DNA of 64,000 nucleotides from Bacillota bacterium. GTDB taxonomy: Bacteria; Bacillota; Clostridia; Christensenellales; DTU072. The stretch covers positions 4,960-68,959 of the forward strand of contig WQYD01000001.1 in assembly GCA_009781445.1 (NCBI GenBank), given 5' to 3'. The position numbers and the translations under genes are program-made. This document shows, piece by piece, positions 1,351-52,174 of the stretch. The notes below the pieces were generated by a model. That model did not search any database and was not told where the DNA came from. It was given only the letters and a program-made list of their open reading frames with translations. Numbering within the stretch: the first letter of the stretch is position 1; every line of letters begins with the position of its first letter.

Positions 1351-3015
1351 ATGGCGTTTGTTGATAAAATTTCCGAAGTTTTAAATGAAAAGCTTGATTT
1401 TTTTGGCTTAGGCGCGCAGTATACGCCTGCTTTCTATCTTGCATTGTTTGCTACGCTTCTTGTGGTTGTGGCTTTCGTGATTGCGGTTCTTGTTAAAAAC
1501 GCGTCCGAAGCTAAAAAACTTTCTGTGCTGTTTTTAGAAGTTTCAAAAGAAGTAGACGAACTTGGGATAGTAGACGAAACTAATCTTGGAAAATTAAACC
1601 AAATCGTGGGCAAACTTCCTGCCCCTGTTTACGATGCCTTCGGCAAATTTCTTGAAGCCCCGAACGCAAGCTACCCTTCGGACTATATGCCCGATTCCAT
1701 GGTAATGAACGATCCTGTTATGGTGCCAAAGCACAAAGCGGGGCTTGGCTTGTTCCGCGGGCTAACTTCCGCATTCATAGCACTGGCAGTTATTTTTGCT
1801 TCCATAGGCGAAAGTGCGGTTTGGGGTTTTGCTGTGGAAAATGCAACCTATGTTGCGCTTTGCGTGGCTTCGGTTGTGGCGTTGCCATTTTTAATTTACA
1901 TTCCGCTTGCCGTTCTTTTAAATGCTTCCTACCGCAAACAGCTTTTGGAACTTTCGGAATCTTTTAAAGAATTAAAGCTAACCCTAAATAAGCACAATGC
2001 TTTGTGGGCGGATAGGGAAGATAAATTCGTTACCGAAAATGTGGAAGAAATTAACGCCGCGATAGAAGAAATTCTTAAAAACCGCGTGCAGAACCGCCGT
2101 ATTACCGAACTTCTTGAAGTTGAGGCAGAGGCAAGGCAAGGCGAAGATTTGGCACTTGCGGCAGTTGAGGAAGTGTTTGTTCCCGAAGAGGAATATGAAT
2201 ATGAACCTGTTCCGTTGCCCGCACCAAGAGCGGTTATTGAAGAAGAACCCGTAGTTGAAGAAGCTATTGAAGAAGTTGTTGAAGAACCAATAGTTGAAGA
2301 AGTTGTTGAAGAGGCTGTGGAAGAACCTATAGTTGAAGAAGCCACTGAAGAAGTTGTTGAAGAGGCTGTGGAAGAACCTATAGTTGAAGAAGCCACTGAA
2401 GAAGTTATTGAAGAGGCAATAGAAGAACCTGTGGCGGAAGAACCGATTGTTGAAGAAATTGCGGAAGAAGCGGTAGTTGAAGAAGTCATTGAGGAAATTG
2501 CCGAAGAACCTGCGGTTGAAGAAATTGTTGAAGAGATTATAGAAGAACCTATAGTTGAAGAAGTTGTGGAAGAACCAGTAGTTGAAGAGGTTATAGAAGA
2601 ATCCGCGCAATCTAATGACGATATGTATGCAGAGCTTCTTGGGCTTGTGGAAATTATGGATGGCTTTATGAGTGATCCGAACACCACCGCCGAACATATA
2701 ACCACCTGCCGAGGCATATTGAACGAAGCAAGGCTTAACCCGATATTTAATGAACCCTTGCCCCAACAAATCTTTGATACCTGCCTTGGAATCCTTGCAG
2801 ACGCGCCTCAGCTTAAAGAAGAAGTTACTGATCCCTATGAAGATTTACTGCAACTTGTGCAAATTGTGGACGGCTTAATGCAAGACGAAAATACCACCGC
2901 GGATCAAATTGAAGAATGCAAAGCAATTCTTTCCTCTGCCCGCCAAGGCGAAAACTTTGCCACTGAAGAAATTCAACAAATCTTTGATATTTGCTTCGGA
3001 ATCCTTGAGGGATAA
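1351..3015 (+). CDS. Membrane protein with ~3 TM segments, a long acidic (E-E-x-V/I)n repeat region and two ~60-aa C-terminal repeats; function unknown
   Basis: ATG at 1351 is preceded by GGAGG (1337-1341). Hydrophobic stretches occur near the N-terminus. The EEPIVEEVVEEAVEE repeats have 51-bp periodicity. Duplicated module: LLGLVEIMDGFMSDPNTTAEHI / LLQLVQIVDGLMQDENTTADQI. An intrinsic terminator follows. Confidence 0.7.
   Translation: MAFVDKISEVLNEKLDFFGLGAQYTPAFYLALFATLLVVVAFVIAVLVKNASEAKKLSVLFLEVSKEVDELGIVDETNLGKLNQIVGKLPAPVYDAFGKFLEAPNASYPSDYMPDSMVMNDPVMVPKHKAGLGLFRGLTSAFIALAVIFASIGESAVWGFAVENATYVALCVASVVALPFLIYIPLAVLLNASYRKQLLELSESFKELKLTLNKHNALWADREDKFVTENVEEINAAIEEILKNRVQNRRITELLEVEAEARQGEDLALAAVEEVFVPEEEYEYEPVPLPAPRAVIEEEPVVEEAIEEVVEEPIVEEVVEEAVEEPIVEEATEEVVEEAVEEPIVEEATEEVIEEAIEEPVAEEPIVEEIAEEAVVEEVIEEIAEEPAVEEIVEEIIEEPIVEEVVEEPVVEEVIEESAQSNDDMYAELLGLVEIMDGFMSDPNTTAEHITTCRGILNEARLNPIFNEPLPQQIFDTCLGILADAPQLKEEVTDPYEDLLQLVQIVDGLMQDENTTADQIEECKAILSSARQGENFATEEIQQIFDICFGILEG
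2236..2604 (+). repeat. Coding tandem repeat (51-bp / 17-aa period, EVVEEAVEEPIVEEATE) inside the acidic membrane protein
   Basis: Two perfect 51-bp copies at 2299-2349 and 2350-2400, flanked by degenerate copies. Confidence 0.85.
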
Positions 3016-3045
3016 TAAGAACGAACAAAAAAGCCACCAAACGAA

Positions 3046-3081
3046 CAAAAAGCCACCAAGCTACTGCGGGGTGGCTTTTTC
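3046..3081 (+). terminator. Intrinsic terminator after the acidic membrane protein gene
   Basis: AGCCACC (3051-3057) pairs with GGTGGCT (3070-3076), followed by a T-run. It is preceded by a 20-bp direct duplication ACGAACAAAAAAGCCACCAA. Confidence 0.7.
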
Positions 3082-3085
3082 ATTA

Positions 3086-3403
3086 AGGGGGCAGGTTGCA
3101 GGGGGCAGGTTGCAGGGTTGGAATCTAAATATCATTATGAATCAGCGCACAACGCACAGCGCACAACGCACAGCGCACAACGCACAGCGCACAGCGCACA
3201 ATGGTGGATTCTAAATCTCATTATTGAAAAGTGAAACGAGAAACATGAAACGAGAAACATGGTGGATTCTAAATATCATTATTAGTTAAATAATCCATAA
3301 TTCTACATTCTGAATTCTGAATTCTGAATTAAGCCATAATTCGTACTTCGTACCTAAAAAACAATTCCACCATTGTGCGCTGTGCGCTGTGCGTTGTTCG
3401 CTG
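3086..3403. repeat. Four tandem units: [GGGGGCAGGTTGCA]x2+core; [CAGCGCA/CAACGCA]x8+core; [GTGAAACGAGAAACAT]x2+core; [ATTCTGA]x4-[TTCGTAC]x2-AATTCCACCATT-[GTGCGCT]x4
   Basis: Cores at 3116-3138, 3203-3225 and 3261-3283. The outer GCGCACA and TGTGCGC arrays are inverted relative to each other. Confidence 0.95.
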
Positions 3404-3446
3404 AATAATCACCAAAAAACCACCAAAACCGCCCCAAAAATTTTCC

Positions 3447-3475
3447 TTGACAAATTTATTTTAATGGTTTATACT
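3447..3475 (+). promoter_or_regulatory. Sigma-A-type promoter TTGACA-17-TATACT for the 916-aa lipoprotein gene
   Basis: Hexamers at 3447-3452 and 3470-3475. The SD-containing leader follows. Confidence 0.6.
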
Positions 3476-3514
3476 CATTGTATATAAACAAAAACTTGGA
3501 GGTTTTTATAAATT

Positions 3515-6265
3515 ATGACTAAAAAGAGAATTCTAACACTAATTTTAGTTCTCGTGCTTATAGCATCTGTGGGCATGATGGCTTTCGCGTGTAACAACAA
3601 TAGCACTGGTGGCGGTCGTTGCACAGGTTGTAACAAAACCAAGTGCGATAAGTCTACCCCTAAATGCCCCGGCTACACAGAGCCAGTGGACTACATAGAG
3701 CTTCAAAACTGGGTTGAAACCCTTGTGGAAAGCCTTGATAAAACCGTGGACGCGGCAATAAGGGCAGGGCTTGACTCACAAAAGAAAGGCGGAAAGCTTT
3801 ACGCAGGTGCAACTTTCTACTTAGACCTTGTGGCGGATGCCGCAAAAGGCGAGAAAGTGGAAATGGAATTGGTTGCTAAGGGCAGATTTGATGCCGTTAA
3901 CCCCGGAAACAGCGAAGCTTTCGTGTCTGTTAACCTCGGTTCTACAATTGAAGGACTGCAAGATGTGGGCATTTCAGCCACAAAGTCCCCTCACTTTACT
4001 TTGTACGCAAAGGACGGCGATGCGTGGATTGGGCAAAAACTTCTATCGGGCGCAACAATGCAATGGTCTAAGCTAAGCCAAGGCAAGGGAAAATCACCCG
4101 CTGAAAATGTGTACTCACTTGCTTACGCGCTTTCAAATGTTCCCTCTGCTTTAGGCGGTCTTCTTCCTGAAGATGACGCAGAAGAAGGAATCTTTGATGC
4201 ACCTTTCAGCGGAATTTCTGATCTATATGTTGCTGAGAATATTCCAATGCTCAAGAGCATTAGTAATCTTGTTACCTTAATAGGTCCCCTAATGAGCTGG
4301 GCTTCCGAAATAGACGAATTTGGCGAAGAGATTGAAGGCGATCCTTTCGTGTTCGCACCTAAAGGCTACAATGGCAATAACAGCCCCGCAGGTCTTTACA
4401 CATGGAACATTGCGCTTAGCCAAATAGCAGGGCTTCTTGAGATTGTGGAAGGGCTCTTTGCCGGCGACGACGGCGATGACGACGGTGGCGGTCTTTTAGG
4501 GCTTCTTGAAGGTCTTGTGGGCGACATAAGCATGTTAGACCCGATAATTGAAGCGATTTTCAATGTGGGATTAGAGGATTTCTTAGCCGGCAAAGGCGCA
4601 GATAAGTTCCCCAGCTTGCTTGTGAATTATACGCTTGACACTAAAGGGCATATTACAGGGCTTAACTTTGTTTATGACAACATGAAAGAAAAAGACATAA
4701 GGCTTGAAATCGGCATTAAGAATCTTGAATTCTCAAGCGACACAAGCACTACAGCACACCCTGCGTTTTTAGCCCCCTCGGTTTATCAAAACGCACAGGA
4801 AACAGCAATTAAACTATCGTTTAACCTTTCCACACCAAGCAGAGAATTTGATATGCTTGTGAATGCTTATGTGTATCCTTCATTCGTGATCAATTATTGC
4901 AGTGAAGACGGTGTTTCAATTAGCATTGCAGAAGGCTTACTTGCTGAGGCGGAATTAATCTTAAACGGCGAATCGTTTGGAATAGATGCAGTTTACTATA
5001 TAAACGGCACAACAGGCTACCTTGCATTTGATCTTGCGAATGTGTTTGAGGAAATAGGCGTAGAGGCAGAACACGATATTCCCACCAAATTTATGTGGGA
5101 AGCGGATATCCGCAACCTATTCAGCTTTGTAGAGGGCTATACCGCCCCCGAAACCGTGGCACCTGTGGCTTGCGAAGAATGCGATAAAACCGCTTGCGAA
5201 TGCCCTTGCGCTAAGTGCGATACAGAACCTTGCACTTGCAAGAAGTTCGTTTCTTGGGAAACAGTGTATGTTCGTTGCGAAGAATGCGCCGAATGCATTA
5301 AGACAACCCCCGGAAATTGCTTAAAACCTGTGGCAAAAGAAGTATTTAACTGGGTACCTGAACTTAACAAAACTAACACAATTGATAAAGTTGCCGATGC
5401 GGTTAAAGATATTATTAACGGCTTCATTAAAGACGGCTTTAGCATGGGAATCATTACAGATGTGTTTGATCTTCTTGACGATATCATGGATATCGGCAAC
5501 GCAATCGGCGACATCTTTAACGACAAAGTTATCACAGATAACGGCTTATCCTTCCTTAACTTCCTTACAGGGCTTGTTTCAATCCCTATGGCGAATGAAA
5601 GCGCACTTCTTGAACACATACTTGGCGGAAAGCTCAGCACCCTTGTAGAGGCTTGTGGCGACTGCGAAGGCTGTGAAGATGACGAAGATTGCTTAGCACC
5701 TGTTCTTAAGGACAACGCAGTAGTTGATTTCATTATCAGAATCGTGGCAGAATATTCAAATATAGAACAACCTGAAAGGTTTACCTATGAAGAACTTCTA
5801 AGCATGATTTACCATGTGTTTGAACTTGAAGTTGACTTGCTTAATGCTGACGCGCTTTACATTGGCGGATACGCTTATAACCGCGGGCTTATACTAATAG
5901 GCACAGGCATGGAAATGGGCGATGCTGTTAAATTCTCAGGGCAAACCATGAGTGGCGCAGGCGCAGGAATTATCCTTCAATTAACTTGCGCTAATGTTGC
6001 CCCTAACTTCCAAGGCGGTTGTGACGGCGAAGACGAAGAATGCGAACGCTGTGGCGGTACAGGATTCTTTACAGCAATGACGGCAGGCGTAGGCTTTGAT
6101 ATCGTGGCTAAGAATAAAGGCACCGTTAAACCAGCGTTTAATGTTGGAAACTTAGCAGACTTCGTAAACCTTGGCGATCCTGAAGGATTTGATATCTTCA
6201 CCCAAGCTTTACTTGACGCTTTCAAGGTTTTCAACAACAACTACACATTTCCCGAAGTTGCATAA
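3515..6265 (+). CDS. Cys-rich lipoprotein (916 aa), first of three lipobox proteins; function unknown
   Basis: Consensus promoter at 3447-3475, GGAGG at 3498-3502. Signal peptide with lipobox MMAFAC. Four clusters of CxxC motifs (for example CEECDKTACECPCAKCDTEPCTC). Strong terminator at 6311-6340. Confidence 0.85.
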   Translation: MTKKRILTLILVLVLIASVGMMAFACNNNSTGGGRCTGCNKTKCDKSTPKCPGYTEPVDYIELQNWVETLVESLDKTVDAAIRAGLDSQKKGGKLYAGATFYLDLVADAAKGEKVEMELVAKGRFDAVNPGNSEAFVSVNLGSTIEGLQDVGISATKSPHFTLYAKDGDAWIGQKLLSGATMQWSKLSQGKGKSPAENVYSLAYALSNVPSALGGLLPEDDAEEGIFDAPFSGISDLYVAENIPMLKSISNLVTLIGPLMSWASEIDEFGEEIEGDPFVFAPKGYNGNNSPAGLYTWNIALSQIAGLLEIVEGLFAGDDGDDDGGGLLGLLEGLVGDISMLDPIIEAIFNVGLEDFLAGKGADKFPSLLVNYTLDTKGHITGLNFVYDNMKEKDIRLEIGIKNLEFSSDTSTTAHPAFLAPSVYQNAQETAIKLSFNLSTPSREFDMLVNAYVYPSFVINYCSEDGVSISIAEGLLAEAELILNGESFGIDAVYYINGTTGYLAFDLANVFEEIGVEAEHDIPTKFMWEADIRNLFSFVEGYTAPETVAPVACEECDKTACECPCAKCDTEPCTCKKFVSWETVYVRCEECAECIKTTPGNCLKPVAKEVFNWVPELNKTNTIDKVADAVKDIINGFIKDGFSMGIITDVFDLLDDIMDIGNAIGDIFNDKVITDNGLSFLNFLTGLVSIPMANESALLEHILGGKLSTLVEACGDCEGCEDDEDCLAPVLKDNAVVDFIIRIVAEYSNIEQPERFTYEELLSMIYHVFELEVDLLNADALYIGGYAYNRGLILIGTGMEMGDAVKFSGQTMSGAGAGIILQLTCANVAPNFQGGCDGEDEECERCGGTGFFTAMTAGVGFDIVAKNKGTVKPAFNVGNLADFVNLGDPEGFDIFTQALLDAFKVFNNNYTFPEVA

Positions 6266-6310
6266 CAATCCAAAACACTAAAATAGTGGCAAATTTGTAG
6301 CCACTGCAAC

Positions 6311-6340
6311 AAAAAGCCCACCAATTCGGTGGGCTTTTTT
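6311..6340 (+). terminator. Strong intrinsic terminator after the 916-aa gene
   Basis: AGCCCACC (6315-6322) pairs with GGTGGGCT (6328-6335), followed by T6. Confidence 0.85.
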
Positions 6341-6344
6341 GTTG

Positions 6345-6449
6345 AGCGCACAGCGCACAGCGCACAGCGCACAAAGGTGGAATTATTTATTAATGAGATT
6401 TAGATTCCGCCATGTTTCTCGTTTCTCGTTTCTCGTTTCTCGTTTCATA
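6345..6449. repeat. [GCGCACA]x4 - GGTGGAAT...TTAATGAGATTTAGATTCCGCC (reverse core) - [GTTTCTC]x5
   Basis: Sits between the terminator of the 916-aa gene and the promoter of the 2954-aa gene. Confidence 0.95.
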
Positions 6450-6477
6450 TTTGCCCTTTATTTACCGCGCATATGTA

Positions 6478-6506
6478 TTGACATACGCGCGCATATAATA
6501 TATTAT
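6478..6506 (+). promoter_or_regulatory. Promoter TTGACA-17-TATTAT ending 7 nt before the ATG of the 2954-aa gene (leaderless-type)
   Basis: Hexamers at 6478-6483 and 6501-6506. ATG at 6514. No SD. Confidence 0.55.
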
Positions 6507-6513
6507 ATATATA

Positions 6514-9500
6514 ATGCGTACGCGCTCATTTACAAGGCAAGTTTTTAAAACCGTTGCCGTAGTGTTATCTGCGCTATTTTTGCTTACCATAATTTCTGCT
6601 TGTTCGCCCTATTTAAGCGGTGCGAAAGATAGATTTCCCATAGATCACGATAATAATGAAAATAAGGTTGTTCACCAATATCCCGAACATTCAGACGAAA
6701 GGCGCAATGCGGTTATTGATAGGGCAATCGGCGCAATGGATAATTTGCTTGTTCACCTTGATTCAATTGAAACCTCTGAAACGGGATATTCAATAGGCGC
6801 GGAAATTTTTATAAACACTTATGACGATATTCCTGCGGAAAGATCCGCATTTAAATTAAACCTTCGTGCAAACCTTTACACCTATCCTTACGAAGAAACG
6901 GACGCAGACGGTAACATTATCATGGAATATAGGAAAAGGGACGGCAAACCCCTTTTACCGGGGCAACTTTTACCGGGGAATATGTACCGCGATGAGTACG
7001 GCGAATTGGTAAAGGCGCAAGAACGCCCCATGGTAAACCAAGCTGCGCTTAAAAAGCATAACGAATTGATTAAATATAACGATATTATCCTTGAATGGTA
7101 TGACGCCGTGAACAATCAGCTTATGATAGGCTTTTATTTTGACGGCATAAATCCTAATTCCGCCGATCCGGGGAATAATCTCTATCTTAACCTCTTGGGC
7201 GATAAGCGCAAATTTGAGAACTTCGGCGACACGGTGCTATATCAGCAAATCGTAAGGCTTATCACCAAATTTAATTTAAACACCCTTGTGGGCGGTGTGT
7301 CCGGTGGCGATAATAGCACGGTAGACGATATCAGCACGCTTTTAAGGCTTTTTGTAAGCACCAATTACAAGGAAACGATAAATGACGATGTAACTTCGCT
7401 TTATTTCCACGATGTGGATTTGTTTTACATTGTGGACGATATTACCACTTACATGAGAAGTTTCTTCGCGCCGTTTGAAGATAAACTTGATCCGCTTTCA
7501 AATAAATACCTTGGGTTTAGGCTTTCCACCCTCGGCACGGCGCAAATTGCAAGCCTTGCCACGGATATGCGCTTTTTAGTAAGCACCCCCCGCCAAGCCG
7601 TGGGCGAAATTTTAACGGGGCTTGAACTTGATTTAAGGGGCGTAAGCCGTGTAATGAAAGGCACAATTCAAGATACGGTTGATTTTACTTCTCAAATGAA
7701 ATTTGAATATAACTTGCGCGTTTCCACCGATATAAGAATTGAAAATAAGCAAGAATATAAACTTTACGAACACGGACAATATGAATTTACCGCAGATCTC
7801 TATGTTCCTTTTATTGATTTGAGGGCAGACGGGCTTTTGAGAACAGATGTTAACAGCTATGATAACAGCAAAAACCGCGTGTTCATGGAATTTTACGACA
7901 AAACTAATAACGAAGTTCTAATAGGCGCGTATTATACTAACGAACTTACATATTTAAACATAACAAACCTGCAAGCCCTGTACGGCGGTATAAAATTTGA
8001 GGATATAAATTTGCCGAAGGCTTATAGAGGTGGTTTCAATTTATCCGATTTGCTTAAATTCGTGGGGGATTTTTTAGACGAATACATAGTGCTTTTCGTG
8101 GATAACCTGCTTTACAATGACGATGACGAATCTTACGCTAATTTAACCAAAACGATAATGGACAACATGGAATCCACCATGATTGATCCCGATGTTCCCG
8201 AATCGCGGAACACAATCCGCTTAAGGCTTAACATGGAATTGCTTCGCGCCGTAATGAAAGAAATGAGTGATGACGGCACGGAATATACAAATGATCAAAT
8301 GGTGGGAATGCTTAACGAAATGTTTGGCATAGATATTGAAACAATTGCCGCGCTTATGGGTGTGAATGTGAAAACACTCATGGATAGCATTTATTTTGAT
8401 ATAACTTACGATGTGGATGAGTACACAATAAAAATAGAAGTCTTTACCAAGGAAACAAATCCGCAAGGCGATCTTATGCTAAGGTTAATCCTTACCCCCA
8501 TTAAAATGGGTGAAAGCGTGGTTATCAGCTTCCCAAGTTTTGAAGGCTTTTTACCGCTTTTACCGATAAGGACTTATAGCGGAAATATTGAAGGGCAAAT
8601 CCTTTTTGCAAGCACGGAAGAAGTTGATCTTTCTGCACTTCTTGGTGCATTTGTGGGGGATTTAAGCGGGCTTAACACCCATTACATTCTTCCTGCCGAA
8701 GCCAAAATTGCTTTTACCGCAGGTTACGATCAATATATCCGTGATCAAATTCTTGAAAACGGCAGGTGGACGCGCGCAGGGCGATCTGCCTTCGCGGTTT
8801 CTTTCTTTGCCGTGGACGCCTCAAACAACCGCACAGAAATTATACGGCTTTATGCCAATGATGTCCGCTTTGATACTTCCGCGCCAGTGGAAGAATTTGG
8901 CTATGTGTGGGTGGATTTAATTTGCGTGCCTAATTTCCCGCGCGTGAAAATCCGTGAAGATTTGTTCATGCAATCCCTTTACCTTTATTTAAATCCAGAC
9001 GGGGTTCTTTTGGACGACATGAATTTAACAGTGGGCTTAACCACGGTTATGAATGTGCTAATGGAAGATTCTTGGGTTTCCTTTGAACCCGATGTTATGC
9101 GGATTACAACTTCTAACCAATTATTTAAGGATTTCTTCCGTGTAGACGAACTTATTGCCACGGTGGAACTTCAGCTTGGATTTAAGCAACGCGTGCGCAA
9201 TATAGACGAATTTGAACACCAATTCGCAATGTACACGGTGGGGCATTTTTCAGATATTCAGGGCAATTCACCTTACTCAATAAGGCTTCACCCCACAATC
9301 CCAGTTTATTTTGATTTCGGAAACCGCATTGAACTTAGAGATTTCTTTGTGCTTTACCACCCCAATTCAGTGGAAGTCCTACCCGGCAAGGGGCAGGCGG
9401 ATAATCCTTACTTCCCCACGCTTGACGGGCTTTTCATGGGCGTGTCGCGCACATATAGGGTGCTCGTTACAGGCACGCAGGACGGCGCGCGCGCAAGCAT

Positions 9501-15378: not shown

Positions 15379-15435
15379 GGGGCGCGCACAAATTGATTAA
15401 ACAAAAAAAGACGGAAGTACACAAAAAGGAACACA

Positions 15436-18400: not shown

Positions 18401-21400
18401 TTTCCTATAGGCTTATTATCGGGCTTGGAAGCATGGCGGAAACTTCATTTTTCGTTACGGTTGAAATCCTTTCCCGCCATATTGTAACAAATCACGGTAG
18501 CCAAGGAAATATCCCTGTGGTGGCTGAAATTACCATAGATCCGTACGATTTTTCACAAAAACGCACTCAGAACTCTGAATACGATCCCCTTGCAAGCGTG
18601 AGGGTTATTGATCTTGTGTTCTTAAATCCGGACGGCACAACTTATAGAGAACAAAATCTTACATTTGATTGGGAATTTGATACTTCATTCGTTACTTACG
18701 CAGGTGCAGTGGTTTATGTTCATTCAAACTTTAAAGAACTTGATGTTTATCTAAGAGTTATCGTTACCCCCAAATTTGTGGATTATATATCCATATCTTA
18801 TCTTGACAACGGCGTTAAAACGGCTACGGAAGAAAGAGGTGAGTACACAGTTGATATGCTTTTAAGAGATACTTACAGGATTCCCTTTGTAACTTCAAGC
18901 ACCGTGGAAATCCGCATTTACTTCCGTCAAGCAGGGGACGCAGAACCGCGTTATAGAATTGTGGGCGCAGTGGGTTCGGGAACGCCTTGCGAAGCGTCAG
19001 ACGGTTGGTATCATTTAAGCAATATCCGCTGGGATATAGAAAGCGCGGAAGAAAATAACTTAAGGGCAGAGGGTTCTCTCAACCCCTTAAGGGACGGAAA
19101 TAGGAATACCGCAATTAACAGGGGAACTTTCGCTTTTGGGGATGGTTACGCAGGCGCGCAAAGGTTTGAAATGATTGTTCGTGCGCCAAGCAGGCTTGTT
19201 CAGCCCGAAACCACCATGCGTTGCATTACCACCCTTGTTCAAAATGACGGCATAATCAGCAGTGATTCGGTGTGGGAACATATTCTTGTGTCAAGGGTAA
19301 GCCACGGCAATTTCGGGGACTTAACTTATAACAGGGACGGACACCCGATTGAAATCTTCCCAAGAAAGGACGGCGCAACTAACCGCTTACCCGAACACAT
19401 AAATATGCTTGTGTCCTACGCGGGTTCGGTGGTTAGGCGTGCTTATAAAATTGAATGGATTGAAAATTCTGTAATAGACGCAGACGGCAATATGAAGCAC
19501 TCTCTAATGCAGGAAACTTGGCTTGAAGTTAAGGGCAGAATCGGCAACGGCGCGATTACGCAAATTGTTACCCTTGTGGTGCATAATGCAGGCACAGATG
19601 TGTACGAAATTGTGTTTAGCTTCGCAGGCACGGAAAGTGATATTGTGCATAAGCCCGTGCCTATCCCCAACCCTCAAGATCCCCAAGGGCCTTTTATTGA
19701 AACCAAGGCTGAATGGATAATTAAACCCTATTCCAATCCTCATTTGCCTAATTTCTTAAGGGTAATTTACCTCATTGAGGGCGAAGAACTGCTGATTGAG
19801 ATTCAAAACCCGATTTGGCTTAGAGATATCAATATTCAAACCAACCCAAGTTTACCGCCGATATGGCAGGAAGAAACGGTTAGCCCCACAGAAGTTTTCC
19901 CCTATAACCAAGGCAGATATGAGGTTTATGTGCGCTTGCCCGAAGATAAGGATAAGGGGCTTGTTTCACGCAAAATCCCCCTTGTGGTTGTGGTTGAATT
20001 TGATTGGCTTGTCCGTGCTAATTATATTTATGATATAACCGATCGTTGCAACCCAAGCACAGTTTTAACCACAGGCGCGGTAACGGTAGGCACTTACGAA
20101 GCGGAATCTCAGAGTATTCATTCGCTTTTGGTTACTTATGTGGGCGGGCAAAGAATCGTGAATGATATAACCGTGGGCGCAATGCTTTCATATAACGCAG
20201 GAAATAGCCAAGAAGCCTTCCACGGCTTGCCTGTTTCTTGGAATCTTAATTCGCTTAACACATTTATTGATTGCCTTGAAAGCCCCCTTGGTTCTTCGCT
20301 TTACCCTAACGGCAGGGTGGAACTCTTTGGCTATATTTATCAAGGCACAGTGCTTGAACAAAGGGTTAATATTTGGTTTATCGTTCCCCAAAGCGAAATA
20401 ACGGGGCTTTCGTTCGGAAACTTTGCTTTTGGGCAAAGTGAGGAATATTACAAGATTCTTGAAATAGCGGTTGATTTAAACTTAAGGCTAATAAGCATAA
20501 ACCTTGATTTGGCTTACGCACTCTTTAACACCACATTTGCGTCTATTTACGGCTATCACTCAAGCCCCGAAAACCATAGAAATCTGCTGTATGATTTCAT
20601 TGATTATCTTTTTGCCAAGGTGGGATTTGGCTTTGAGGGCTTGCCGGGGTATCAAGATCATTCCGTTCTTTACAGCGCACCGCCCTTAAATATTTTCCCC
20701 TTGGCAGACGGGGTTGATAGCGTAACCGTGATTTTTGAACTGTATAAACTTGGAATAGGCAGTAATGCCTCTAAATTTGATATAGAATTTACATTTGTAA
20801 GAAGCAACCTGCCCACGGCAACGCTTTCACTGTTTGAAGAAGTGTTTACAGCGCAAGGCGTTTTCGTTTATAACGATTGGGATAGGGGCTTCCCCATGCC
20901 TCACGAAACAAGCGTGGAATACCTGCTTGCCACAAACGGTAACATTTTAGTTCCCACTGGAAACCACCTTGAACCTTACAGGCCGTTAAGTCCCCAAGGC
21001 ACAAGGTATCAAGTTAATTACTTTAACCTTATTTGGTATTCAAGTGAGGATTATTATGCGGATAACGGCAAAGTGCTTTTAAGAGATGCGCGCGTGGATT
21101 TTATCCCGGTGGAATTCTTTTCCCGTGCGGAACACCTAACCTTTTACACCACCCTTTACCCTCAAGGAATAAGGCTTTCGCTTCAAATCACATTCTATCA
21201 AAAGAATATCAATTTAACCGCTTACAATGCTTCTGGTGCAGATTCGCGCTATACGATTTCGGGCGGGCAGATCAATATAAATAACATTTATGATTTTTAT
21301 GAATTTAACCCCGCACTTCTTCCAAATAGGATTGTGCCGATTGTTACCTCTCAAGATACTTCCTATCAATTTAAGTACGATTTAGCCCCCGGCACGCCTG

Positions 21401-24400
21401 TGGGTATGTTCGGATTCTCAATTTTGCAGTGGATTCCGGGTGAAAGGTTTAGAAACGATAGTGATCCTATGAGGTTTGATCAAGCGAAAATCAATAGCTA
21501 TTTCAATTACGGCGGTTATATTTCTCAGCCAAATCAGCCTTTTGCAACTGCGTACATAATAATGTACCCCGGTTCGGGGTTTAGTGGCGATCGCCAACCC
21601 ATTCACCTTTATATAAATGTGGGCGAACTTTTCCATGCAAGAGTTAGCTTTGAGGGCATAGGTGATTTGTTTAGCGGAAACGAAACAGACGGCTTTGTTA
21701 ACAGCCTTGAATTTGATCCTTATGAGATTTTCATGGGCGGTAAATTTGTGTTGCCCACCTCTATAAGCGTTCAATTTAACGGCACAATAACAAGGAATAA
21801 TAACCCCACTCACTTCTCACTTACCACACTCTTAAGCAATGTAAGGTATAAAATTATCAATCCCTTAGGCGGTTGGCATTATATCTTAGATATTGATTAC
21901 GATTCAGAGGGGCATTTACTGCCGAATGAGTTTGGCTACCATGGTAAGAATGACACAATTAAACTTCTTATCGTGCTTATAGACGGGCAAGAGATTCCCT
22001 TTGATTTAACATTCTTAAGGCGCGTGCTGGACGAAGACGGTGTTATCCTCACTAACACAGGATTTAATTTAGGCGGTACGGCAATTTCATGGACGCTTAA
22101 CAACCGCTATTATATTGATCCCTATAACGAAGCCACGCACATATTGCCTTTAAACGCGATATTCACATTTAATGATAATGCAGTTCATAGAGAACTTGCC
22201 ACGGATTGGGAATTCGGAAACAGCAATGCGTTCAGCAAAACCCAAAGCGGATACAAGCTGATTTGGGATACCGAAAACACTTATAAGGGTGCGCAATACT
22301 TGGCTGAAGTGATTCTTGCCGATTACGGCGGTGTTGATCAGCGCGCCTTTGTGGAAATCATTGTTATTGAAAGAGCGTTACGCGAGGCTTATGACGGCTA
22401 TAAATTTATTGAAAATCCTATAACCTATCTTGCTTCGGATCTTGCGCGCGAATTAGCGGTTGACGCACCCTTCTTCCCCACGCTTGACAGTGAATTATAC
22501 AGCGCGTACACAAGCAATCTTGCCGTGCCTGTTCTTCCAAGGATTATTTGGAATATCACGGATAGTGAAATCGGCTTTGGCGGATTTAATAAGAGCATTG
22601 AGGGAAGATTGTCATACGGTAGCTTAAGCGGTGAAAGGGCTTCGGCTACAATCACCGCAAACGAATGGAAATTTATAGAAATCGTGCTTCCGCCCCCTCA
22701 AGCAGGCGAAACCACACAATTTATAAACTTTAATCCGGTAACGCTTGAAAGCGTGGCTACTTCTTTTATGGTTCGGTTTGAGGAATTAACTTCAAGCGGT
22801 GTTGTGATTAGGTTTGTTGAATTCTATCCTTTGGAAGCAATCGGAAGCCATGAAACTGAAAGCTATAAACTTCGTTCTGTAATAGATTGGGGCGAACGCA
22901 CCGCAGATTCCGCGCACGGCACTCTTGGCACAGTAAGATTCTATAACGCGCACAAGCAGGGTAGCGGGCTTATCTTTACCGCCCCTTCGCGGTACGGTTA
23001 CCGCTATATGCAGGTAAGCGTCAATCAAATAGATCTTGGATTCGGCTGGGGCGGGCATTTGCACGAACAATTCCCCCGCCCAGTTCTTGTTATTGATCCC
23101 TTTAACCCCTATGTACCCTCAACCGTTAAAGCGCGCGGAATAGATTTGGGAACAGGTGAGCCAAGCGGAATTGAATTCTTAATGAACATTAGTTACGAAT
23201 CTAAAATCCTTAATTTCAATGCGTTTATGGGTGGCGGTTATCAGGAAATTATTGCCAAGGTAGTGGCTACGGACGGCGGGCTTAGTTTTGATTTCGTAAT
23301 AGATGTGTATTATCTTAACCGCATACCTGTGGCATTCTATACCACAACTTCAGGTTTTTCCACAAATCCTGTGGCAGGCAGGTTCGTTTTGGGCAGGGTG
23401 GTGAACAATGTTCATAACACAAGTTTCTATCTTGATCCATTAAATCCTCTTACCTATGATTCTTCAAGCGGAACTTACAGAATGCCAAATGATATTATTC
23501 TTGAATTTGTAAGGGATTACGATAATTACACCGATATTGATATCAGGTTACTTCTTGAAAGCACCGCACTTAAGTTCGGATTAGAGCATACTCTCACGAA
23601 TATCAGCTTTACCCACGGCGAAATTTTACTAAGCGGTACACTAAGCGGTGCGCCCTTATATGTTTCCTTTAATAAGTATAACCTTAGCTATAACAGCAAT
23701 GACGCAGGGGTTATTACCCAAATAAACAAGGGCGAAGTTGAGCATTCCACGCCTCTTGATATCAGGTTCAGCCTGCACCTTGAAGTAAGGAACTGCACGG
23801 TTTTCTACACTTCCGTTTCCGAACCTTACTGCACAGTTTGTGATCTTCCCAAGCGTGAATTTGTGCAAGGCTTAAGAATATGCACCGAACATGATTTTAG
23901 CTTCAGCGTGCAAATTGCAAATGACGGTTGGCGCGTTGATCCTTATAATATCAGATTCCCTGAAAGGGTTCTTGTTACCTTTGTGGATATTAACCTTCCT
24001 GTGCGCGAATTTGCAATCGGCGGTGCAGGTGCTTCGGGCGCAAGGTGGATTTATGACGAAGCCTACCTTTTAAGACCGGGGGTTATTAACGGCACAGATC
24101 CTGAATCCGCCATGTTTTTACCCTGCCACTTCATTGTGCTTGGCGCAAAAATTGAAATCACATTCCCTATAGTGCCACGGCACATCAATTTGGAAAATGA
24201 AAGCAATCCGCTTGGCATGATTCCTCTTAGCGGTGGCAAACTTTTCGTGCTTAAAGGGCAACCTCTTGACGAACAGTTAAAAACACTTTATCCTTACCTC
24301 TATTATGAATTTGACACGCCAAGCGGTGGCAAGGAAATTGCGCGTGCGCCTTTATCATTCCCGTCCTTAAGCGGATTTAACACGCACGAAGCAGGCACAT

Positions 24401-27072
24401 TCCACGATCTTCGCGGTAGGCTTGGCTTAGTGGGCGCAGGCGGTAACATTGTGTTTACCCTTGAGGTTATAGATCCCAAGGTGTTCAATATCATAATGAT
24501 AAACAATGAATATTATGACGGCGGATTTATCTATGAAAAAATCGCCGTGGCAATGGGCGCAGGCGGGCAACATATCCCGGGGGCGGAAAGATCTCTTCTT
24601 CCCAGCGTAATAATTGTGAATGACAGCCGTGATTTCGTTACCTTTTACCGTGAACCAAGCTATGATATTGCAAGCGGTAAGGTAACTTTCTATTGCGAAT
24701 ACCTTTTTGCAGGGGATTTTGATTCCGCTTTAATTTACGGCAGATTTAATCCCGCCACCGATAAATATGAAAAAACCTTAAGGTTTACTTACGAAATTCC
24801 GCTTTCGGTTTACGATCATCAATTTGTGAACTTGCAGGATTCGTATTACCTTGGCAGGGTGGAAAACGGCAATAACATTGCGGTAAGTGAGATATTTATC
24901 CCTCTTGGAACTCACCTTCATTCCTCACAAATGCCCCTTGCAATCTCAAATGTTCAAGGTACTCAAGCGGTAGAACTCTTTTGGGATATTGAAAATGCGT
25001 TCAACATTTACCGTGCTTCTTCGTACAGGGCTTTCGGATATATCAAAACGCTTACGGGTGCGGATAGAAGTTTTGAACTAACAATTCATGTGGTTCAAGA
25101 TATTTTTGATAGAGAACACCATGTTCTTGGATTGTTGCCCGAAACTGGTGGCACGCTTAATAGGGATATAAATCTATGGCTAATCCGCGGTTACACAGGC
25201 ATTCCGCGCCCCCTTGAAGCTGAAATTGCTTTAGCAGATTTCTATAGGGGCGATAGAGACGGCATAAAGGGCAGACCTTCATTCGTTATGCACTACAGCG
25301 CAGACGGTGGCGAAAACTGGACGGTTGGAAGCGATCCTATTGCTGTGGGCAATTATATGCTAAGAATCACAATGACTGATTTTAATGTAAGCGGTGTTGC
25401 GTTCTATCCCTTTAGCATAGCCCCGTATCAAATTTTTGAAAACTATCCTGTTACATTCACTTTCGGGCATAGTACGATTGGCATGGTGCTTGACGCTAAT
25501 GAAAATTGGATTTATCCCGTTTTCACCAAAACATTTGATAACCTGCCCATGGTGGTTGGGGTTAATAACTTACCGCGCAATTCGCATTACGATTATATTT
25601 ATGAAAGGCGCACGGCAATCGGCGGTTGGGAACAATATATAGGGCAGTACAGCGAACCTCATTTAGTGGGCGAATACCGCTTGGTTCTGCGCCTGAATGC
25701 AGACGAAAGGAATTACACCGGTAATGCAGAATTTATGGTTTACCTTAATATAGTTAAGCATTCCGCGGATTATAGCATTTACACTTCCATGGTATATAAC
25801 GGTTGGGAACGCCACCCCGATATTCACGATAAACCTGCCGTTCTTTTAGACGGAATGGCAATTATTTACCGCTACTATTCTCAGCAAGAGGGCGGTGTAC
25901 TGCTTAATATTAACGGAATTAAGAATGTGGGGCGGTACTTCGTGGAAGTTGAGATAATCGGCGGTGATAATTATGAGGATTGGAAATCAGGGCGCACAGA
26001 GGTAAATATTACCCCCATGCTTATAACCGTGCAGATAAATAAACTTGAAAGCGAATATCTTTCCGCCCTTATGCCACGCGAATCCGCTATTTCGTTCCAT
26101 GATTTTAACGATCACAGCGCAAGCGGGCTTGTGGGCGATGATGCGCGCATTGATAGATTAAGCGAATTCAGAAGTTTCTTTAGAGTGGAATGGGTGGGCG
26201 GTACGCTTTCGCGCTGGCACACAAAGGGCATTTATAATTTAGAGTTCAGGGATATGGATTTATCACGCACGCGTATGCCTAACTATCAAATTATGGATTA
26301 CACCGATACTTCGGGCAACCGCGATATTTATGAAATCACCACCCTTGAAGGGCAACTAATTAACGGTGTTGTGGAACTGATGCACGAAATTTCCGCATTC
26401 GCCATGAATCCCACCCCCAATGTGCGCTGGTATCTCATGCCGGGGCATTATGATCATGTGGTGCTGAATATTGATTCCGCAATATCCATAATAGGCGCGT
26501 ATCAGGACGGCGATCCAAGTAAAATAGGCGTAACCTTTAGCAGTATCACAATACTTCGCGGTTCGCTTACGCTTGATATTGCAGGCTTTACCTCACGGAT
26601 AAATTCCGCCTCACTCACAATCGGCAGGTTTGCAGGCGATGTTATGGTTTCACGCACAGATTTTTCAAGCAATTTAACAGTGGGCTTCCTGTTCGGTTCG
26701 GTGGGAATCCGCGCGGAAGCGGGCTATATAGGTACACTTAACCTTGAAAATTGCCGTTTCCACGGGCTTGCCTCAGCGGTATATCTTTGGGGCGGTTCAA
26801 TAAGGGCGTCCGAATGCGTGCTTGAAAATAACCAAATAGGCATTCACGCGCAAAGCCCTGCAAGCGTTGTGCTTGTTAATAACCGCTTCTTAAGAAGCCA
26901 AACTTCTGCGGTGGTAATATTTAATAAAATAGACAGGGAAAATGTGATAATAAACGCAAACGAATTTAGGGGCAACAATACCGCAATCCGCACCCTTGCA
27001 GAACTAAACGAAGAAATTATGATGATTTCAAACACATTTGTAAATAATGCGATAGCGGTTGAGAGGCTATAA
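15436..27072 (+). CDS. Giant lipoprotein (3878 aa) with C-terminal MBG-like repeats and a right-handed parallel beta-helix region; putative adhesin or surface protein
   Basis: Uninterrupted 11.6-kb ORF, 57 bp after the previous gene with no terminator between them. Lipobox LFAC. The C-terminal ~250 aa show PbH1-like repeats (LENCRFHG..., LENNQIGIH..., VNNRFLRS..., NANEFRGNNTAI..., SNTFVNNAIA). Upstream are VGxY...NY...I modules typical of MBG domains. Confidence 0.9.
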   Translation: MKKTLKPTILILITLVLVLALFACANDGAGSGDDFVGGSGSGPVYNPPTQSEIISKINQGIRNGAEVADESVRFVKSEYTFIVQPRINVTIRYEANYNLNIRQDSEFLLKVTNNETAVNSLFFWYRHGNLYYQFNDIRIRETVPIVGSNPPRQENTGREFVGSRIEGFGGEIAFNLFFTLMRLFDLDSFFFADPDLFDVNDEFPDELNDFSMDTFAGYVASIIGMAEDKSISSLEVSHDREVINITNVVVDNLKDRINRFLRDSVRDGLGTRLDALTTILFGFNISDIGLTAINTLNAQKVSVILENETVKQVDILFNGVQSNNIDNFSLSMHYEIGTGAKAINPPALDDPRNEKNIYEPVRLGEFHYVGTVYIDSIDETFFSEIKGNLNPYDNMLNSFLVDIRNRSVGLDSSSPFYRDDSIASLFFKNEILFIGLEGYMNNYMTNSIALKDLGLPNVAFAGVDTASIFSSLLSSVIQFSSVSLSPMALLSLLSVDAGTDNGLSVLLSKINTVDGTKLEITIDKELLEILLEGDSSLSLTSFFTNLTGITPAMAESLIGGGMFDNLVLIYRYDYVTKDIELQINSGNERLCIFYLTAQKITLESGQTSFEFSAPEGFNENDYGAFVPPATVALRMDIEMQLQGVEIQNLSQLFGALIGDNSGKNSPFDFRIGDKLFIETDIWLVGEDTYLKAMFYLRRGNCTDCDKTINANEKLCLINPYINILNIYTLSTNADILLVEVKAMQGLPEISFRIPKSVVQEQLSEVQGEKGAGLFNTGSVMDIYNLLLRESSYYLMEDEYIRFALTPDMLDGVGRDPVRDIIGISGFTAVFNASIKFNMPNALYNGNENKFVVPEAIMLNDLAFDSIYEAYWQTHAEISFGAERFLFELSFTEDSAKLISGVFHYSPKARLFGLNVGYVMILRDIENGTKYIDALLEYTILIDPAEENPIPETVVVRYDDGTTGRQSFVLEGFSYTEDNIKNAMNGVPPISYRLIIGLGSMAETSFFVTVEILSRHIVTNHGSQGNIPVVAEITIDPYDFSQKRTQNSEYDPLASVRVIDLVFLNPDGTTYREQNLTFDWEFDTSFVTYAGAVVYVHSNFKELDVYLRVIVTPKFVDYISISYLDNGVKTATEERGEYTVDMLLRDTYRIPFVTSSTVEIRIYFRQAGDAEPRYRIVGAVGSGTPCEASDGWYHLSNIRWDIESAEENNLRAEGSLNPLRDGNRNTAINRGTFAFGDGYAGAQRFEMIVRAPSRLVQPETTMRCITTLVQNDGIISSDSVWEHILVSRVSHGNFGDLTYNRDGHPIEIFPRKDGATNRLPEHINMLVSYAGSVVRRAYKIEWIENSVIDADGNMKHSLMQETWLEVKGRIGNGAITQIVTLVVHNAGTDVYEIVFSFAGTESDIVHKPVPIPNPQDPQGPFIETKAEWIIKPYSNPHLPNFLRVIYLIEGEELLIEIQNPIWLRDINIQTNPSLPPIWQEETVSPTEVFPYNQGRYEVYVRLPEDKDKGLVSRKIPLVVVVEFDWLVRANYIYDITDRCNPSTVLTTGAVTVGTYEAESQSIHSLLVTYVGGQRIVNDITVGAMLSYNAGNSQEAFHGLPVSWNLNSLNTFIDCLESPLGSSLYPNGRVELFGYIYQGTVLEQRVNIWFIVPQSEITGLSFGNFAFGQSEEYYKILEIAVDLNLRLISINLDLAYALFNTTFASIYGYHSSPENHRNLLYDFIDYLFAKVGFGFEGLPGYQDHSVLYSAPPLNIFPLADGVDSVTVIFELYKLGIGSNASKFDIEFTFVRSNLPTATLSLFEEVFTAQGVFVYNDWDRGFPMPHETSVEYLLATNGNILVPTGNHLEPYRPLSPQGTRYQVNYFNLIWYSSEDYYADNGKVLLRDARVDFIPVEFFSRAEHLTFYTTLYPQGIRLSLQITFYQKNINLTAYNASGADSRYTISGGQININNIYDFYEFNPALLPNRIVPIVTSQDTSYQFKYDLAPGTPVGMFGFSILQWIPGERFRNDSDPMRFDQAKINSYFNYGGYISQPNQPFATAYIIMYPGSGFSGDRQPIHLYINVGELFHARVSFEGIGDLFSGNETDGFVNSLEFDPYEIFMGGKFVLPTSISVQFNGTITRNNNPTHFSLTTLLSNVRYKIINPLGGWHYILDIDYDSEGHLLPNEFGYHGKNDTIKLLIVLIDGQEIPFDLTFLRRVLDEDGVILTNTGFNLGGTAISWTLNNRYYIDPYNEATHILPLNAIFTFNDNAVHRELATDWEFGNSNAFSKTQSGYKLIWDTENTYKGAQYLAEVILADYGGVDQRAFVEIIVIERALREAYDGYKFIENPITYLASDLARELAVDAPFFPTLDSELYSAYTSNLAVPVLPRIIWNITDSEIGFGGFNKSIEGRLSYGSLSGERASATITANEWKFIEIVLPPPQAGETTQFINFNPVTLESVATSFMVRFEELTSSGVVIRFVEFYPLEAIGSHETESYKLRSVIDWGERTADSAHGTLGTVRFYNAHKQGSGLIFTAPSRYGYRYMQVSVNQIDLGFGWGGHLHEQFPRPVLVIDPFNPYVPSTVKARGIDLGTGEPSGIEFLMNISYESKILNFNAFMGGGYQEIIAKVVATDGGLSFDFVIDVYYLNRIPVAFYTTTSGFSTNPVAGRFVLGRVVNNVHNTSFYLDPLNPLTYDSSSGTYRMPNDIILEFVRDYDNYTDIDIRLLLESTALKFGLEHTLTNISFTHGEILLSGTLSGAPLYVSFNKYNLSYNSNDAGVITQINKGEVEHSTPLDIRFSLHLEVRNCTVFYTSVSEPYCTVCDLPKREFVQGLRICTEHDFSFSVQIANDGWRVDPYNIRFPERVLVTFVDINLPVREFAIGGAGASGARWIYDEAYLLRPGVINGTDPESAMFLPCHFIVLGAKIEITFPIVPRHINLENESNPLGMIPLSGGKLFVLKGQPLDEQLKTLYPYLYYEFDTPSGGKEIARAPLSFPSLSGFNTHEAGTFHDLRGRLGLVGAGGNIVFTLEVIDPKVFNIIMINNEYYDGGFIYEKIAVAMGAGGQHIPGAERSLLPSVIIVNDSRDFVTFYREPSYDIASGKVTFYCEYLFAGDFDSALIYGRFNPATDKYEKTLRFTYEIPLSVYDHQFVNLQDSYYLGRVENGNNIAVSEIFIPLGTHLHSSQMPLAISNVQGTQAVELFWDIENAFNIYRASSYRAFGYIKTLTGADRSFELTIHVVQDIFDREHHVLGLLPETGGTLNRDINLWLIRGYTGIPRPLEAEIALADFYRGDRDGIKGRPSFVMHYSADGGENWTVGSDPIAVGNYMLRITMTDFNVSGVAFYPFSIAPYQIFENYPVTFTFGHSTIGMVLDANENWIYPVFTKTFDNLPMVVGVNNLPRNSHYDYIYERRTAIGGWEQYIGQYSEPHLVGEYRLVLRLNADERNYTGNAEFMVYLNIVKHSADYSIYTSMVYNGWERHPDIHDKPAVLLDGMAIIYRYYSQQEGGVLLNINGIKNVGRYFVEVEIIGGDNYEDWKSGRTEVNITPMLITVQINKLESEYLSALMPRESAISFHDFNDHSASGLVGDDARIDRLSEFRSFFRVEWVGGTLSRWHTKGIYNLEFRDMDLSRTRMPNYQIMDYTDTSGNRDIYEITTLEGQLINGVVELMHEISAFAMNPTPNVRWYLMPGHYDHVVLNIDSAISIIGAYQDGDPSKIGVTFSSITILRGSLTLDIAGFTSRINSASLTIGRFAGDVMVSRTDFSSNLTVGFLFGSVGIRAEAGYIGTLNLENCRFHGLASAVYLWGGSIRASECVLENNQIGIHAQSPASVVLVNNRFLRSQTSAVVIFNKIDRENVIINANEFRGNNTAIRTLAELNEEIMMISNTFVNNAIAVERL

Positions 27073-27207
27073 CAGCGCACAGCGCACAATGCACAGCGCA
27101 CAGTGAAGGATTAATTCAGAATTAAGAATTCAGAATGCAGAATTGTGGATTGATTAACTAATAATGAGATTTAGATTCCACCATTGTGCGCTGTGCGCTG
27201 TGCGCTG
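27073..27207. repeat. [CAGCGCA]x4 - [AATTCAG-like]x4 - reverse core (27159-27182) - ATT - [GTGCGCT]x3; fills the whole convergent intergenic gap
   Basis: It begins at the base after the stop of the 3878-aa gene. The terminal arrays are inverted and could pair into a ~25-bp stem. Confidence 0.95.
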
Positions 27208-29040: not shown

Positions 29041-29225
29041 AGGTTATAGGGCATAGGGCATAGGGGTGGAATCTAAATCTCATTATTGAGGGTGCAGGTT
29101 GCAGGATGCAGGATGCAGGGTTGGAATCTAAATCTCATTATTAATTAATCCGTAATTTATATTTCATATTTTTCCTTAATTCTGAATTCTTAATTCTGAA
29201 TTCTTAATTAGTTATCGTACTTATT
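29041..29225. repeat. [CATAGGG]x3+core (29065-29087); [GGTGCAG/GATGCAG]x4+core (29119-29142); ATATTT-type and [ATTCTGA/ATTCTTA]x4 arrays
   Basis: Abuts, and provides, the ATG of the AI-2E transporter gene. Confidence 0.95.
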
Positions 29226-29333
29226 TAGCATACACAACCACGCGAAGAACCACGCCAAGAACCTTACATTTTGCAAAACTTACCATATTACTACAAATAA
29301 ACCGTGCTATAATTGAATGCTTTGTGCGTTTTT

Positions 29334-29362
29334 AGCCTGCAAAATAGGGGCAGGCTTTATTT
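29334..29362 (+). terminator. Terminator-like hairpin in the leader of the 29387 gene
   Basis: AGCCTGC (29334-29340) pairs with GCAGGCT (29350-29356), followed by TTTATTT. It lies ~20 nt downstream of an extended -10 (TGcTATAAT, 29305-29313). Confidence 0.4.
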
Positions 29363-29386
29363 GCGCCGTCCTGAAACAAAAATAAA

Positions 29387-52167: not shown

Positions 52168-52174
52168 AATAGGT

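Follow-up and report, generated by a model that had tools for sequence, protein, structure and literature searches.

What do four co-oriented genes, encoding one membrane protein and three giant predicted envelope proteins, build at the surface of a clostridium? The question is raised by a 64,000-nucleotide stretch of DNA, referred to here as the window, from a Bacillota bacterium (GTDB lineage Bacteria; Bacillota; Clostridia; Christensenellales; DTU072; GenBank assembly GCA_009781445.1, contig WQYD01000001.1, positions 4,960 to 68,959 of the forward strand). Its first part holds the open reading frames (ORFs) A560 (1333/1351-3015), B916 (3515-6265), C2954 (6514-15378) and D3878 (15436-27072), of which we call the last three B, C and D. 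An earlier annotation made from the sequence alone (the original prediction) described these four ORFs, and their coordinates and translations agree with the orientation and protein sizes that it gave. We propose that B, C and D form a conserved cassette encoding lipid-anchored fibres that resemble fibrillar adhesins, with a glycan-directed tip carried by D, and we put the probability of this reading at roughly 55%. The broader suggestion of the original prediction, uncharacterised lipid-anchored envelope giants acting as adhesin or scaffold, fits all of our findings; it has to be narrowed in that only C and D are paralogs and A560 does not belong to the unit.

First, the three genes recur together in related genomes. 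A pattern scan of GTDB species representatives, with patterns derived from a 5-sequence alignment (a 17-sequence alignment was too diverse), returned eight loci in metagenome-assembled genomes (MAGs) labelled Christensenellaceae bacterium (two), Clostridiales bacterium Firm_09 (one), Candidatus Stercoripulliclostridium (two; placed by NCBI in Bacillota; Clostridia) and uncultured Clostridia/Eubacteriales (three). In each of the eight, a giant C-like ORF is immediately followed by a D-like ORF of 3666-4002 aa that aligns collinearly with D from end to end. A metagenome scan with the C-family alignment added ten loci with a GC content of 32-55%, and the C-D tandem is present in all nine whose sequence continues beyond the C-like gene. 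Wherever the DNA in front of the C-like gene is long enough (8 loci), a lipoprotein of 670-1007 aa is encoded upstream on the same strand, and these B-like proteins prove homologous to B916 (blastp E 4e-15 to 1e-4; all seven full-length ones are also recovered by jackhmmer). The synteny check proposed with the original prediction thus finds the B-like, C-like, D-like order wherever the sequence suffices. The GTDB scan with C2954 as a single sequence gave no match, and a word-index protein search was uninformative here, returning nothing for D aa 1-1200, two short fragments for C aa 588-1000 and only itself for the B-family alignment. We conclude that the B-C-D cassette belongs specifically to one clade of anaerobic, uncultured Clostridia (MAGs of the Christensenellaceae / Ca. 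Stercoripulliclostridium type).

A560, an acidic-repeat membrane protein that had been counted into the same unit, does not share this conservation. It has its own terminator at 3047-3080, its DNA consists in part of tandem repeats of period 39/51, and a homolog was found only in the most closely related locus (L011), two genes away from the B-like gene. This distribution argues for a neighbour rather than a component, and A560 probably lies outside the conserved unit.

The range of the largest protein was defined by a full HMMER scan with D aa 1-1200 against 1.84 billion cluster representatives. The resulting D family comprises 59 proteins (clusters), of which 54 reach E 1e-10 or better, and nearly all full-length members measure 3.4-6.8k aa. 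Each member has exactly one copy of an N-terminal module of about 800 aa, hereafter the base module, which suggests that the longest members have longer stalks. The possibility that members of 5-6.8k aa are C-D fusions was rejected on the same count.

Conservation of this kind invites a different explanation, namely that the cassette encodes a core envelope scaffold or non-classical surface layer, a constitutive layer of lipid-tethered fibrils in place of an S-layer. Such a layer would account for the same cassette order across 18 related loci, where the sequence reaches, at GC contents of 32-55% and in several named taxa, and for the collinearity of D homologs over their full length. The flanks are conserved too (an AI-2E family transporter and a gene like that of the 329-aa ORF G329), which suggests vertical inheritance, and there are no S-layer homology (SLH) or other wall anchors in the locus. 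However, we found no evidence of self-assembly domains, the stalks diverge fast and vary with total lengths of 3.4k-6.8k aa in the manner of adhesins, and the terminal beta-helix of D looks ligand-directed. We regard the scaffold as a serious alternative, though a less probable one than the fibres.

Second, B, C and D are predicted bacterial lipoproteins, that is, substrates of Lgt and Lsp, which would imply lipidation and surface exposure. In each, a start rich in K and R leads into one hydrophobic segment at the N-terminus, and a lipobox of the PROSITE PS51257-type pattern is present (MAFAC26 in B, ISAC30 in C and LFAC24 in D); the lipoprotein signal peptides named in the original prediction are confirmed in all three, with the cysteine at residues 26, 30 and 24. 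The lipobox is kept in about 50 of the 59 D-family members, with the cysteine near residue 24, and the members without one mostly appear to be N-terminally truncated; it is also found in C-like and B-like proteins wherever their start is certain. In C and D a short tether rich in Gly, Ser, Asn and Asp follows. Pfam and NCBIfam scans of the four proteins matched nothing in A560, B and C and only a C-terminal Beta_helix domain in D; they found no sortase, SLH, ATPase or glycosyltransferase domain, as the original prediction had stated, and SLH domains were likewise missing from the homologs scanned. Nor is there any sign of LPXTG-type anchoring: B, C and D have no C-terminal hydrophobic segment (they end in ...TFPEVA, ...SLQFVP and ...NAIAVERL, in that order) and no Gram_pos_anchor match in Pfam.

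Three more proteins in the window carry a lipobox pattern, a DUF5050 protein (31191-32648), an M1-family peptidase (50404-51909) and a 470-aa protein with a (GN)n tether (52139-53551), and lipoproteins thus appear to be a common type of surface protein in this organism.

Third, C and D are paralogs as judged by sequence comparison. In blastp, C1279-1482 aligns with D992-1150 (E 9e-8) and C324-724 aligns collinearly with D272-667 (E 2e-4), and a profile of 41 D-family members, covering their N-terminal 1350 aa, matches C at E 4e-97, over aa 190-999 and 1279-1711. The first of these regions is the base module of C, which shares the motif GAFVGDLSGLNT with the base module of the D family and, on the strength of this homology, probably has the same fold. 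B stands apart. Against the D-family profile it matches through the signal peptide only. An apparent homology of B to C and D in hhalign, with a probability of 96%, proved to be driven by the signal peptides and was discarded when it fell to 6-9% (E 0.004-0.006) on their removal. Within the base module of D a beta-unit of ~90 aa occurs twice, and profiles of these units pick out four B-like proteins, each time at the same place near the N-terminus, with scores that exceed those of all 180 shuffles but reach only 7-15 bits. These unit-profile matches are suggestive only, and B is at best a distant relative of C and D.

The features said to be common to all three giants therefore hold for C and D (blastp E 9e-8, profile E 4e-97) and find no significant support in B (E 0.004-0.006), and the all-versus-all profile comparison proposed as a test of paralogy gives the same division, with B not demonstrably related at a probability of 6-9%. 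The strand motif described as recurrent occurs in its strict form once each in C and D and not at all in B. As to the Big_4-like immunoglobulin-like (Ig-like) modules that this motif had called to mind, the Pfam family Big_4 (PF07532) stays below threshold in C (14.1 bits, E 0.036, versus a gathering score of 22.1 bits) but passes it in the homolog P0036 (33.3 bits) and in the C-like protein of locus L013 (28 bits).

Fourth, the base module is a domain that has not been described before. An AlphaFold2 (AF2) model of D aa 45-850, computed with 20 family sequences, has long strands arranged in three antiparallel beta-meander sheets, with helical segments between the sheets; its low-confidence loops include a CxxC insert. 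None of 20 family members has a Pfam match in this region, NCBIfam gave none, and a profile search of the PDB was empty. Foldseek found no global match of the model in the PDB (TMq 0.15 or less). Local resemblances concern single sheets: a LolA-like carrier (4mxt, probability 0.85) and an S. aureus protein (4eg9, 0.94), at TMt 0.32-0.40 (0.40 for 4eg9) and E above 0.01, together with TbpB and microsomal triglyceride transfer protein. As modelled, the ~800-aa base module is an undescribed domain with a confident model and no relative in Pfam, NCBIfam or the PDB.

These local matches could be taken to mean that the LolA-like half-barrels of the base module handle hydrophobic ligands, binding lipids, lipoteichoic acid precursors or other cargo. 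We consider such a function very improbable: the matches to 4mxt, 4eg9, TbpB and microsomal triglyceride transfer protein that speak for it stay at template modelling (TM) scores of 0.40 or less and E above 0.01, folds of this open beta-sheet kind are very common in lipoproteins, and 3,000 further residues and the beta-helix tip would be left unexplained.

The stretch that follows, D aa 845-1200, is the most conserved of the family by its conservation profile and has 23 invariant columns, and a PDB profile search with it was empty, as were PDB sequence searches with C, D and four family profiles. Across the middle 2,000-2,800 residues, sequence repeats are barely detectable, and an iterated profile search gave no count of stalk domains, the domains being too divergent.

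Fifth, D ends in a fold that many glycan-active enzymes share. An AF2 model of the C-terminal 479 aa, computed with 22 sequences, shows Ig-like beta-sandwich domains ahead of the helix and has a predicted local distance difference test score (pLDDT) of 89.8, rising above 90 in a beta-helix of ~230 aa, for which the Pfam Beta_helix score is 34 bits on the isolated tip. Among 22 family tips Pfam finds Beta_helix in 10 and MBG_2/MBG_3 in 5, as well as matches to NosD (CASH superfamily). Foldseek places the helix with tailspikes, PL6 lyases, RbmB, Lam55A and pectate lyases at probabilities of up to 1.0, all at E above 0.009 (best 0.0098-0.04), 9-15% identity and TM scores of 0.33 or less. Superposing the tip-proximal Ig-like domains on the repeats of the Lar_0958 adhesin gives TMt 0.51-0.52, which is not significant (E about 0.5). 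C has no recognisable tip, and the terminal beta-helix of D is not a known adhesive domain. The statement that the giants lack recognisable enzymatic domains consequently holds with one exception at the end of D, where the Beta_helix/CASH-type domain scores above its gathering threshold. Assignment to known families, which had been named as grounds for abandoning the original prediction, applies to the C-terminus of D (Beta_helix, MBG) and not to its N-terminal 800 aa or to B.

Such a tip might also belong to a tethered polysaccharide-degrading enzyme, in which the modelled beta-helix of D would be a catalytic lyase or hydrolase on a long stalk and C and B would be accessory. This is what the Foldseek matches to RbmB (probability 0.95), PL6 chondroitinase and alginate lyases (0.97-0.98), glucanase Lam55A and tailspike endoglycosidases would suggest, together with the Pfam matches to Beta_helix and NosD. 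Set against them are the Foldseek values themselves (E above 0.009, identity 9-15%, TM 0.33 or less) and the shortness of the helix, about 230 aa. Moreover, the tip shows no sequence match to any CAZy-type or other enzyme family of Pfam or to PDB sequences, and no significant similarity to a defined polysaccharide lyase or glycoside hydrolase family. We rate a dedicated enzyme as improbable. A phage or mobile-element origin, for instance as a giant protein of the tail-fibre kind, draws on the resemblance of the tip to phage tailspikes (HK620, probability 1.0) and is essentially refuted: there is no PHROGs match and there are no relatives in IMG/VR, the neighbours are chromosomal housekeeping genes in conserved synteny, and the protein starts with a lipoprotein signal peptide.

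A further feature of the three proteins is their cysteine content. B916, which has no Pfam, NCBIfam or PDB match, contains 26 Cys and 8 CxxC motifs, versus 0.65 CxxC in shuffles, and its B-like homologs have only 0-3 Cys. The cysteines lie in stretches at aa 36-51, 553-602, 714-726 and 825-846, and these inserts are missing from all 8 B-like homologs. CxxC-D is present in B, C and D, and the CxxC motifs of C and D are missing from nearly all homologs. The CxxC-D motifs of the original prediction are thus genuine, with both CxxC and CxxC-D enriched; the insertions of B are absent from its homologs, and the motifs of C and D are rare among theirs. The loop of the D base module that carries its CxxC insert has CxxC arrays in two other lineages as well, and it is possible that these CxxC 'knuckle' insertions form a metal site or a cross-link. 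We also note that a motif C-x-x-C-[DN]-K-T recurs in B and D, and that the CxxC insert of D lies at aa 701-715 and the CxxC array of the D-like protein of L010 at aa 765-823. A derivation of the Cys-rich inserts from TGCGC-rich heptamer intergenic repeats was rejected on reading the DNA.

How might these parts work together? In the fibre reading that we favour, processing by Lgt and Lsp would leave B, C and D tethered to the outside of the cytoplasmic membrane by a diacylglyceryl-cysteine. The 2,000-2,800 residues between base and tip would fold as 20-30 divergent Ig-like domains and so make a stalk of ~75-110 nm that crosses the wall, and the CASH-type tip of D would bind, or possibly cleave, polysaccharide on a host, a food particle or a neighbouring cell. 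C, which is tipless, and B may associate with D at the membrane through related base modules.

Several observations weigh against this proposal. The relationship of B to C and D is below significance, and the association of the three proteins is purely conjectural. The Ig-like stalk is deduced from a few weak Big_4 and MBG matches and from a region with hardly any detectable repeats, and the E values of the beta-helix all lie above 0.009, so that binding is indistinguishable from catalysis. In addition, adhesins tend to be strain-variable, whereas this cassette is conserved and syntenic at GC contents of 32-55% and sits beside housekeeping genes, which favours a core structural role. A more far-reaching idea, which we regard as doubtful, is that the two paralogous giants and the smaller lipoprotein build a constitutive superstructure of the envelope that defines the Christensenellales-type lineage of Clostridia, in which lipid-tethered fibrils of >100 nm, assembled through the base-module fold, would replace a conventional S-layer and the sporadic CxxC insertions would be metal or cross-link sites; if it were true, these fibrils would govern most of the contact between these health-associated gut anaerobes and their environment.

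The transcription signals divide the cassette in two (Table 1). C and D are predicted to be co-transcribed as an operon, and B to form a separate transcription unit. The promoter and strong terminator claimed for the 916-aa gene are both found, as is the 57-nt spacer without a terminator between C and D. A GGAGG ribosome-binding site precedes the ATG of B916. In front of C2954 (6478-6516) only 7 nt separate the end of a -10-like hexamer from the ATG, and a Shine-Dalgarno sequence is missing, which suggests that the C-D transcript may be leaderless; unlike C2954, its homologs in L011, L012 and L013 have GGAGG. In some loci a small opposite-strand gene lies between the B-like and C-like genes, which fits B being its own transcription unit. 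In L014, L017, L018 and L019 this is a conserved ORF of ~190 aa (e.g. L014:6155-6733, minus strand), apparently hydrophobic from its N-terminal sequence MLEYL..IGVYFIIFFGKI...; it is absent from the window.

Table 1. Coordinates of the cassette, its parts and adjacent features, in window positions.
Feature	Position	Strand	Evidence or remark
A560, membrane protein with acidic EEV/EEP repeats	1351..3015	+	transmembrane segments, 22% D+E
Sigma-70-like promoter of B916, TTGACA-17-TATACT	3447..3475	+	11/12 match
B916, 916-aa predicted lipoprotein, lipobox Cys26	3515..6265	+	partner of C and D, conserved in position
Main Cys-rich (CxxC) insertion of B916, aa 553-602, one of four	5171..5320	+	
Intrinsic terminator 3' of B916	6307..6344	+	-23.9 kcal/mol, z -5.6, then T-run
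Sigma-70-like promoter of C-D operon, TTGACA-17-TATTAT	6478..6506	+	11/12 match
C2954, predicted giant lipoprotein, Cys30; paralog of D without beta-helix tip	6514..15378	+	
Base module of C, aa 190-999	7081..9510	+	domain E 1.2e-79 versus D-family profile
Second C region homologous to D, aa 1279-1711	10348..11646	+	domain E 1.3e-20
C-D spacer, 57 nt, without terminator, unstructured	15379..15435	+	minimum free energy 0 kcal/mol
D3878, predicted giant lipoprotein, Cys24	15436..27072	+	
Base module of D, aa 45-850	15568..17985	+	AF2 pLDDT 79.9, pTM 0.73
Most conserved family stretch, D aa 845-1200	17968..19035	+	Big_4-style strand motifs, partly shared with C
C-terminal tip of D, aa 3400-3878	25633..27069	+	MBG-type Ig-like domains, then right-handed parallel beta-helix
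Pfam Beta_helix (PF13229), D aa 3736-3872	26641..27051	+	E 6e-7, 29.7 bits versus cut-off 25.9
Long hairpin of heptamer repeats right after D stop codon	27073..27207	.	-59.8 kcal/mol, z -7.9
AI-2E family transporter	27916..29040	-	Pfam E 7e-39; inverted in the window

The hairpin 3' of D (145 nt) is likely to be a bidirectional terminator and is apparently a copy of an intergenic repeat spread through the genome. A 22-nt core, GGTGGAWTCTAAATMTCATTAT, has 16 copies in the window (0 expected), at sites between the listed ORFs (3117-3282, 6390-6411, 27161-27182, 29065-29141, 32691-32964, 46119, 47590, 58051, 61061 and 63712-63838), and the 7-bp tandem repeats that flank it (CAGCGCA, GAATTCT, GAAACGA) pair to form long hairpins, of which the one after D is an example. 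The element looks like a genome-wide intergenic repeat of the REP/MITE kind. Rfam found no RNA families in the window.

Downstream of D the neighbourhood is partly conserved. The AI-2E transporter gene lies directly downstream of the D-like gene and on the same strand in at least four loci (L005, L007, L009 and L010), and a homolog of the unannotated G329 follows the D-like genes in L008 and L009. In the window the transporter gene is inverted and overlaps a gene for a 4Fe-4S protein (region 27216-30376), which indicates a local rearrangement. A fourth giant ORF lies further on, at 33692-39931 (+; 2079 codons as listed from an upstream TTG). It has a hydrophobic N-terminal segment at aa 58-89, a probable signal peptide or anchor without a lipobox, and at the C-terminus a transmembrane anchor followed by a basic tail. 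Pfam finds nothing in it, and it shows no resemblance to B, C or D.

If our reading is correct, ~7,750 residues of conserved, predicted lipid-anchored surface protein would make up a large share of what hosts, phages and neighbours encounter on these cells, and the conserved B-C-D order defines a concrete three-component system. The Christensenellaceae-like Clostridia that carry the cassette are almost entirely uncultured, and members of the wider group are prominent and heritable in animal gut communities.

Finally, how does the cassette compare with known systems? Among folds, single beta-sheet units of the base module resemble, locally, the open beta-barrels of LolA/LppX-like lipoproteins, but there is no sequence similarity, and the base module joins three such units and helical inserts in one 800-aa module unseen in the PDB. 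The C-terminal ~230 aa of D adopt the fold of the beta-helix proteins (CASH/PF13229; PL6, RbmB, tailspikes); unlike these enzymes and tailspikes, D has no significant family match and its domain is fused to a lipoprotein of 3,600 aa. The large surface lipoproteins of the wall-less Mollicutes, such as the Lmp family of Mycoplasma hominis, are likewise very large, repeat-containing and anchored by an N-terminal lipid. The likeness is one of size, repeats and anchor; these proteins belong to another phylogenetic group, and neither this base module nor a beta-helix tip is known from them.

The nearest comparison is with the fibrillar adhesins. Fibrillar adhesin-like proteins are defined by a stalk, a terminal functional region and a surface anchor, and in the usual Gram-positive arrangement the adhesive domain is N-terminal and the anchor C-terminal (Monzon et al., 2021; PMC8286594). 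Such proteins (SasG, Ebh, the Lactobacillus reuteri Lar_0958 adhesin) are, like C and D in our reading, very long single chains with an Ig-like (Big_4/MBG) stalk, a terminal domain and a surface anchor. They differ in that their anchor is a C-terminal LPXTG motif, SLH domain or transmembrane segment, whereas the surface anchor of C and D would be provided by the N-terminal lipobox. A stalk is suggested by Big_4, sub-threshold in C and above threshold in homologs, and by MBG/Ig-like folds modelled only near the tip. The polarity is opposite, with the working end of D at the C-terminus; C and D also differ in their 800-aa base module without a known relative and in forming, with a third lipoprotein, a conserved paralogous pair that has no known adhesive domain. 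The main text of the survey (PMC8286594) nowhere uses the word 'lipoprotein', and to that extent an N-terminal lipid anchor combined with a C-terminal tip appears to be a fibrillar build uncatalogued in surveys of Gram-positive adhesins. Giant surface proteins with Ig-like repeats are already a known kind; what is new here is a lipobox-anchored architecture of inverted polarity, an ~800-aa domain, and a conserved paralog pair with a partner lipoprotein in a poorly known clade.

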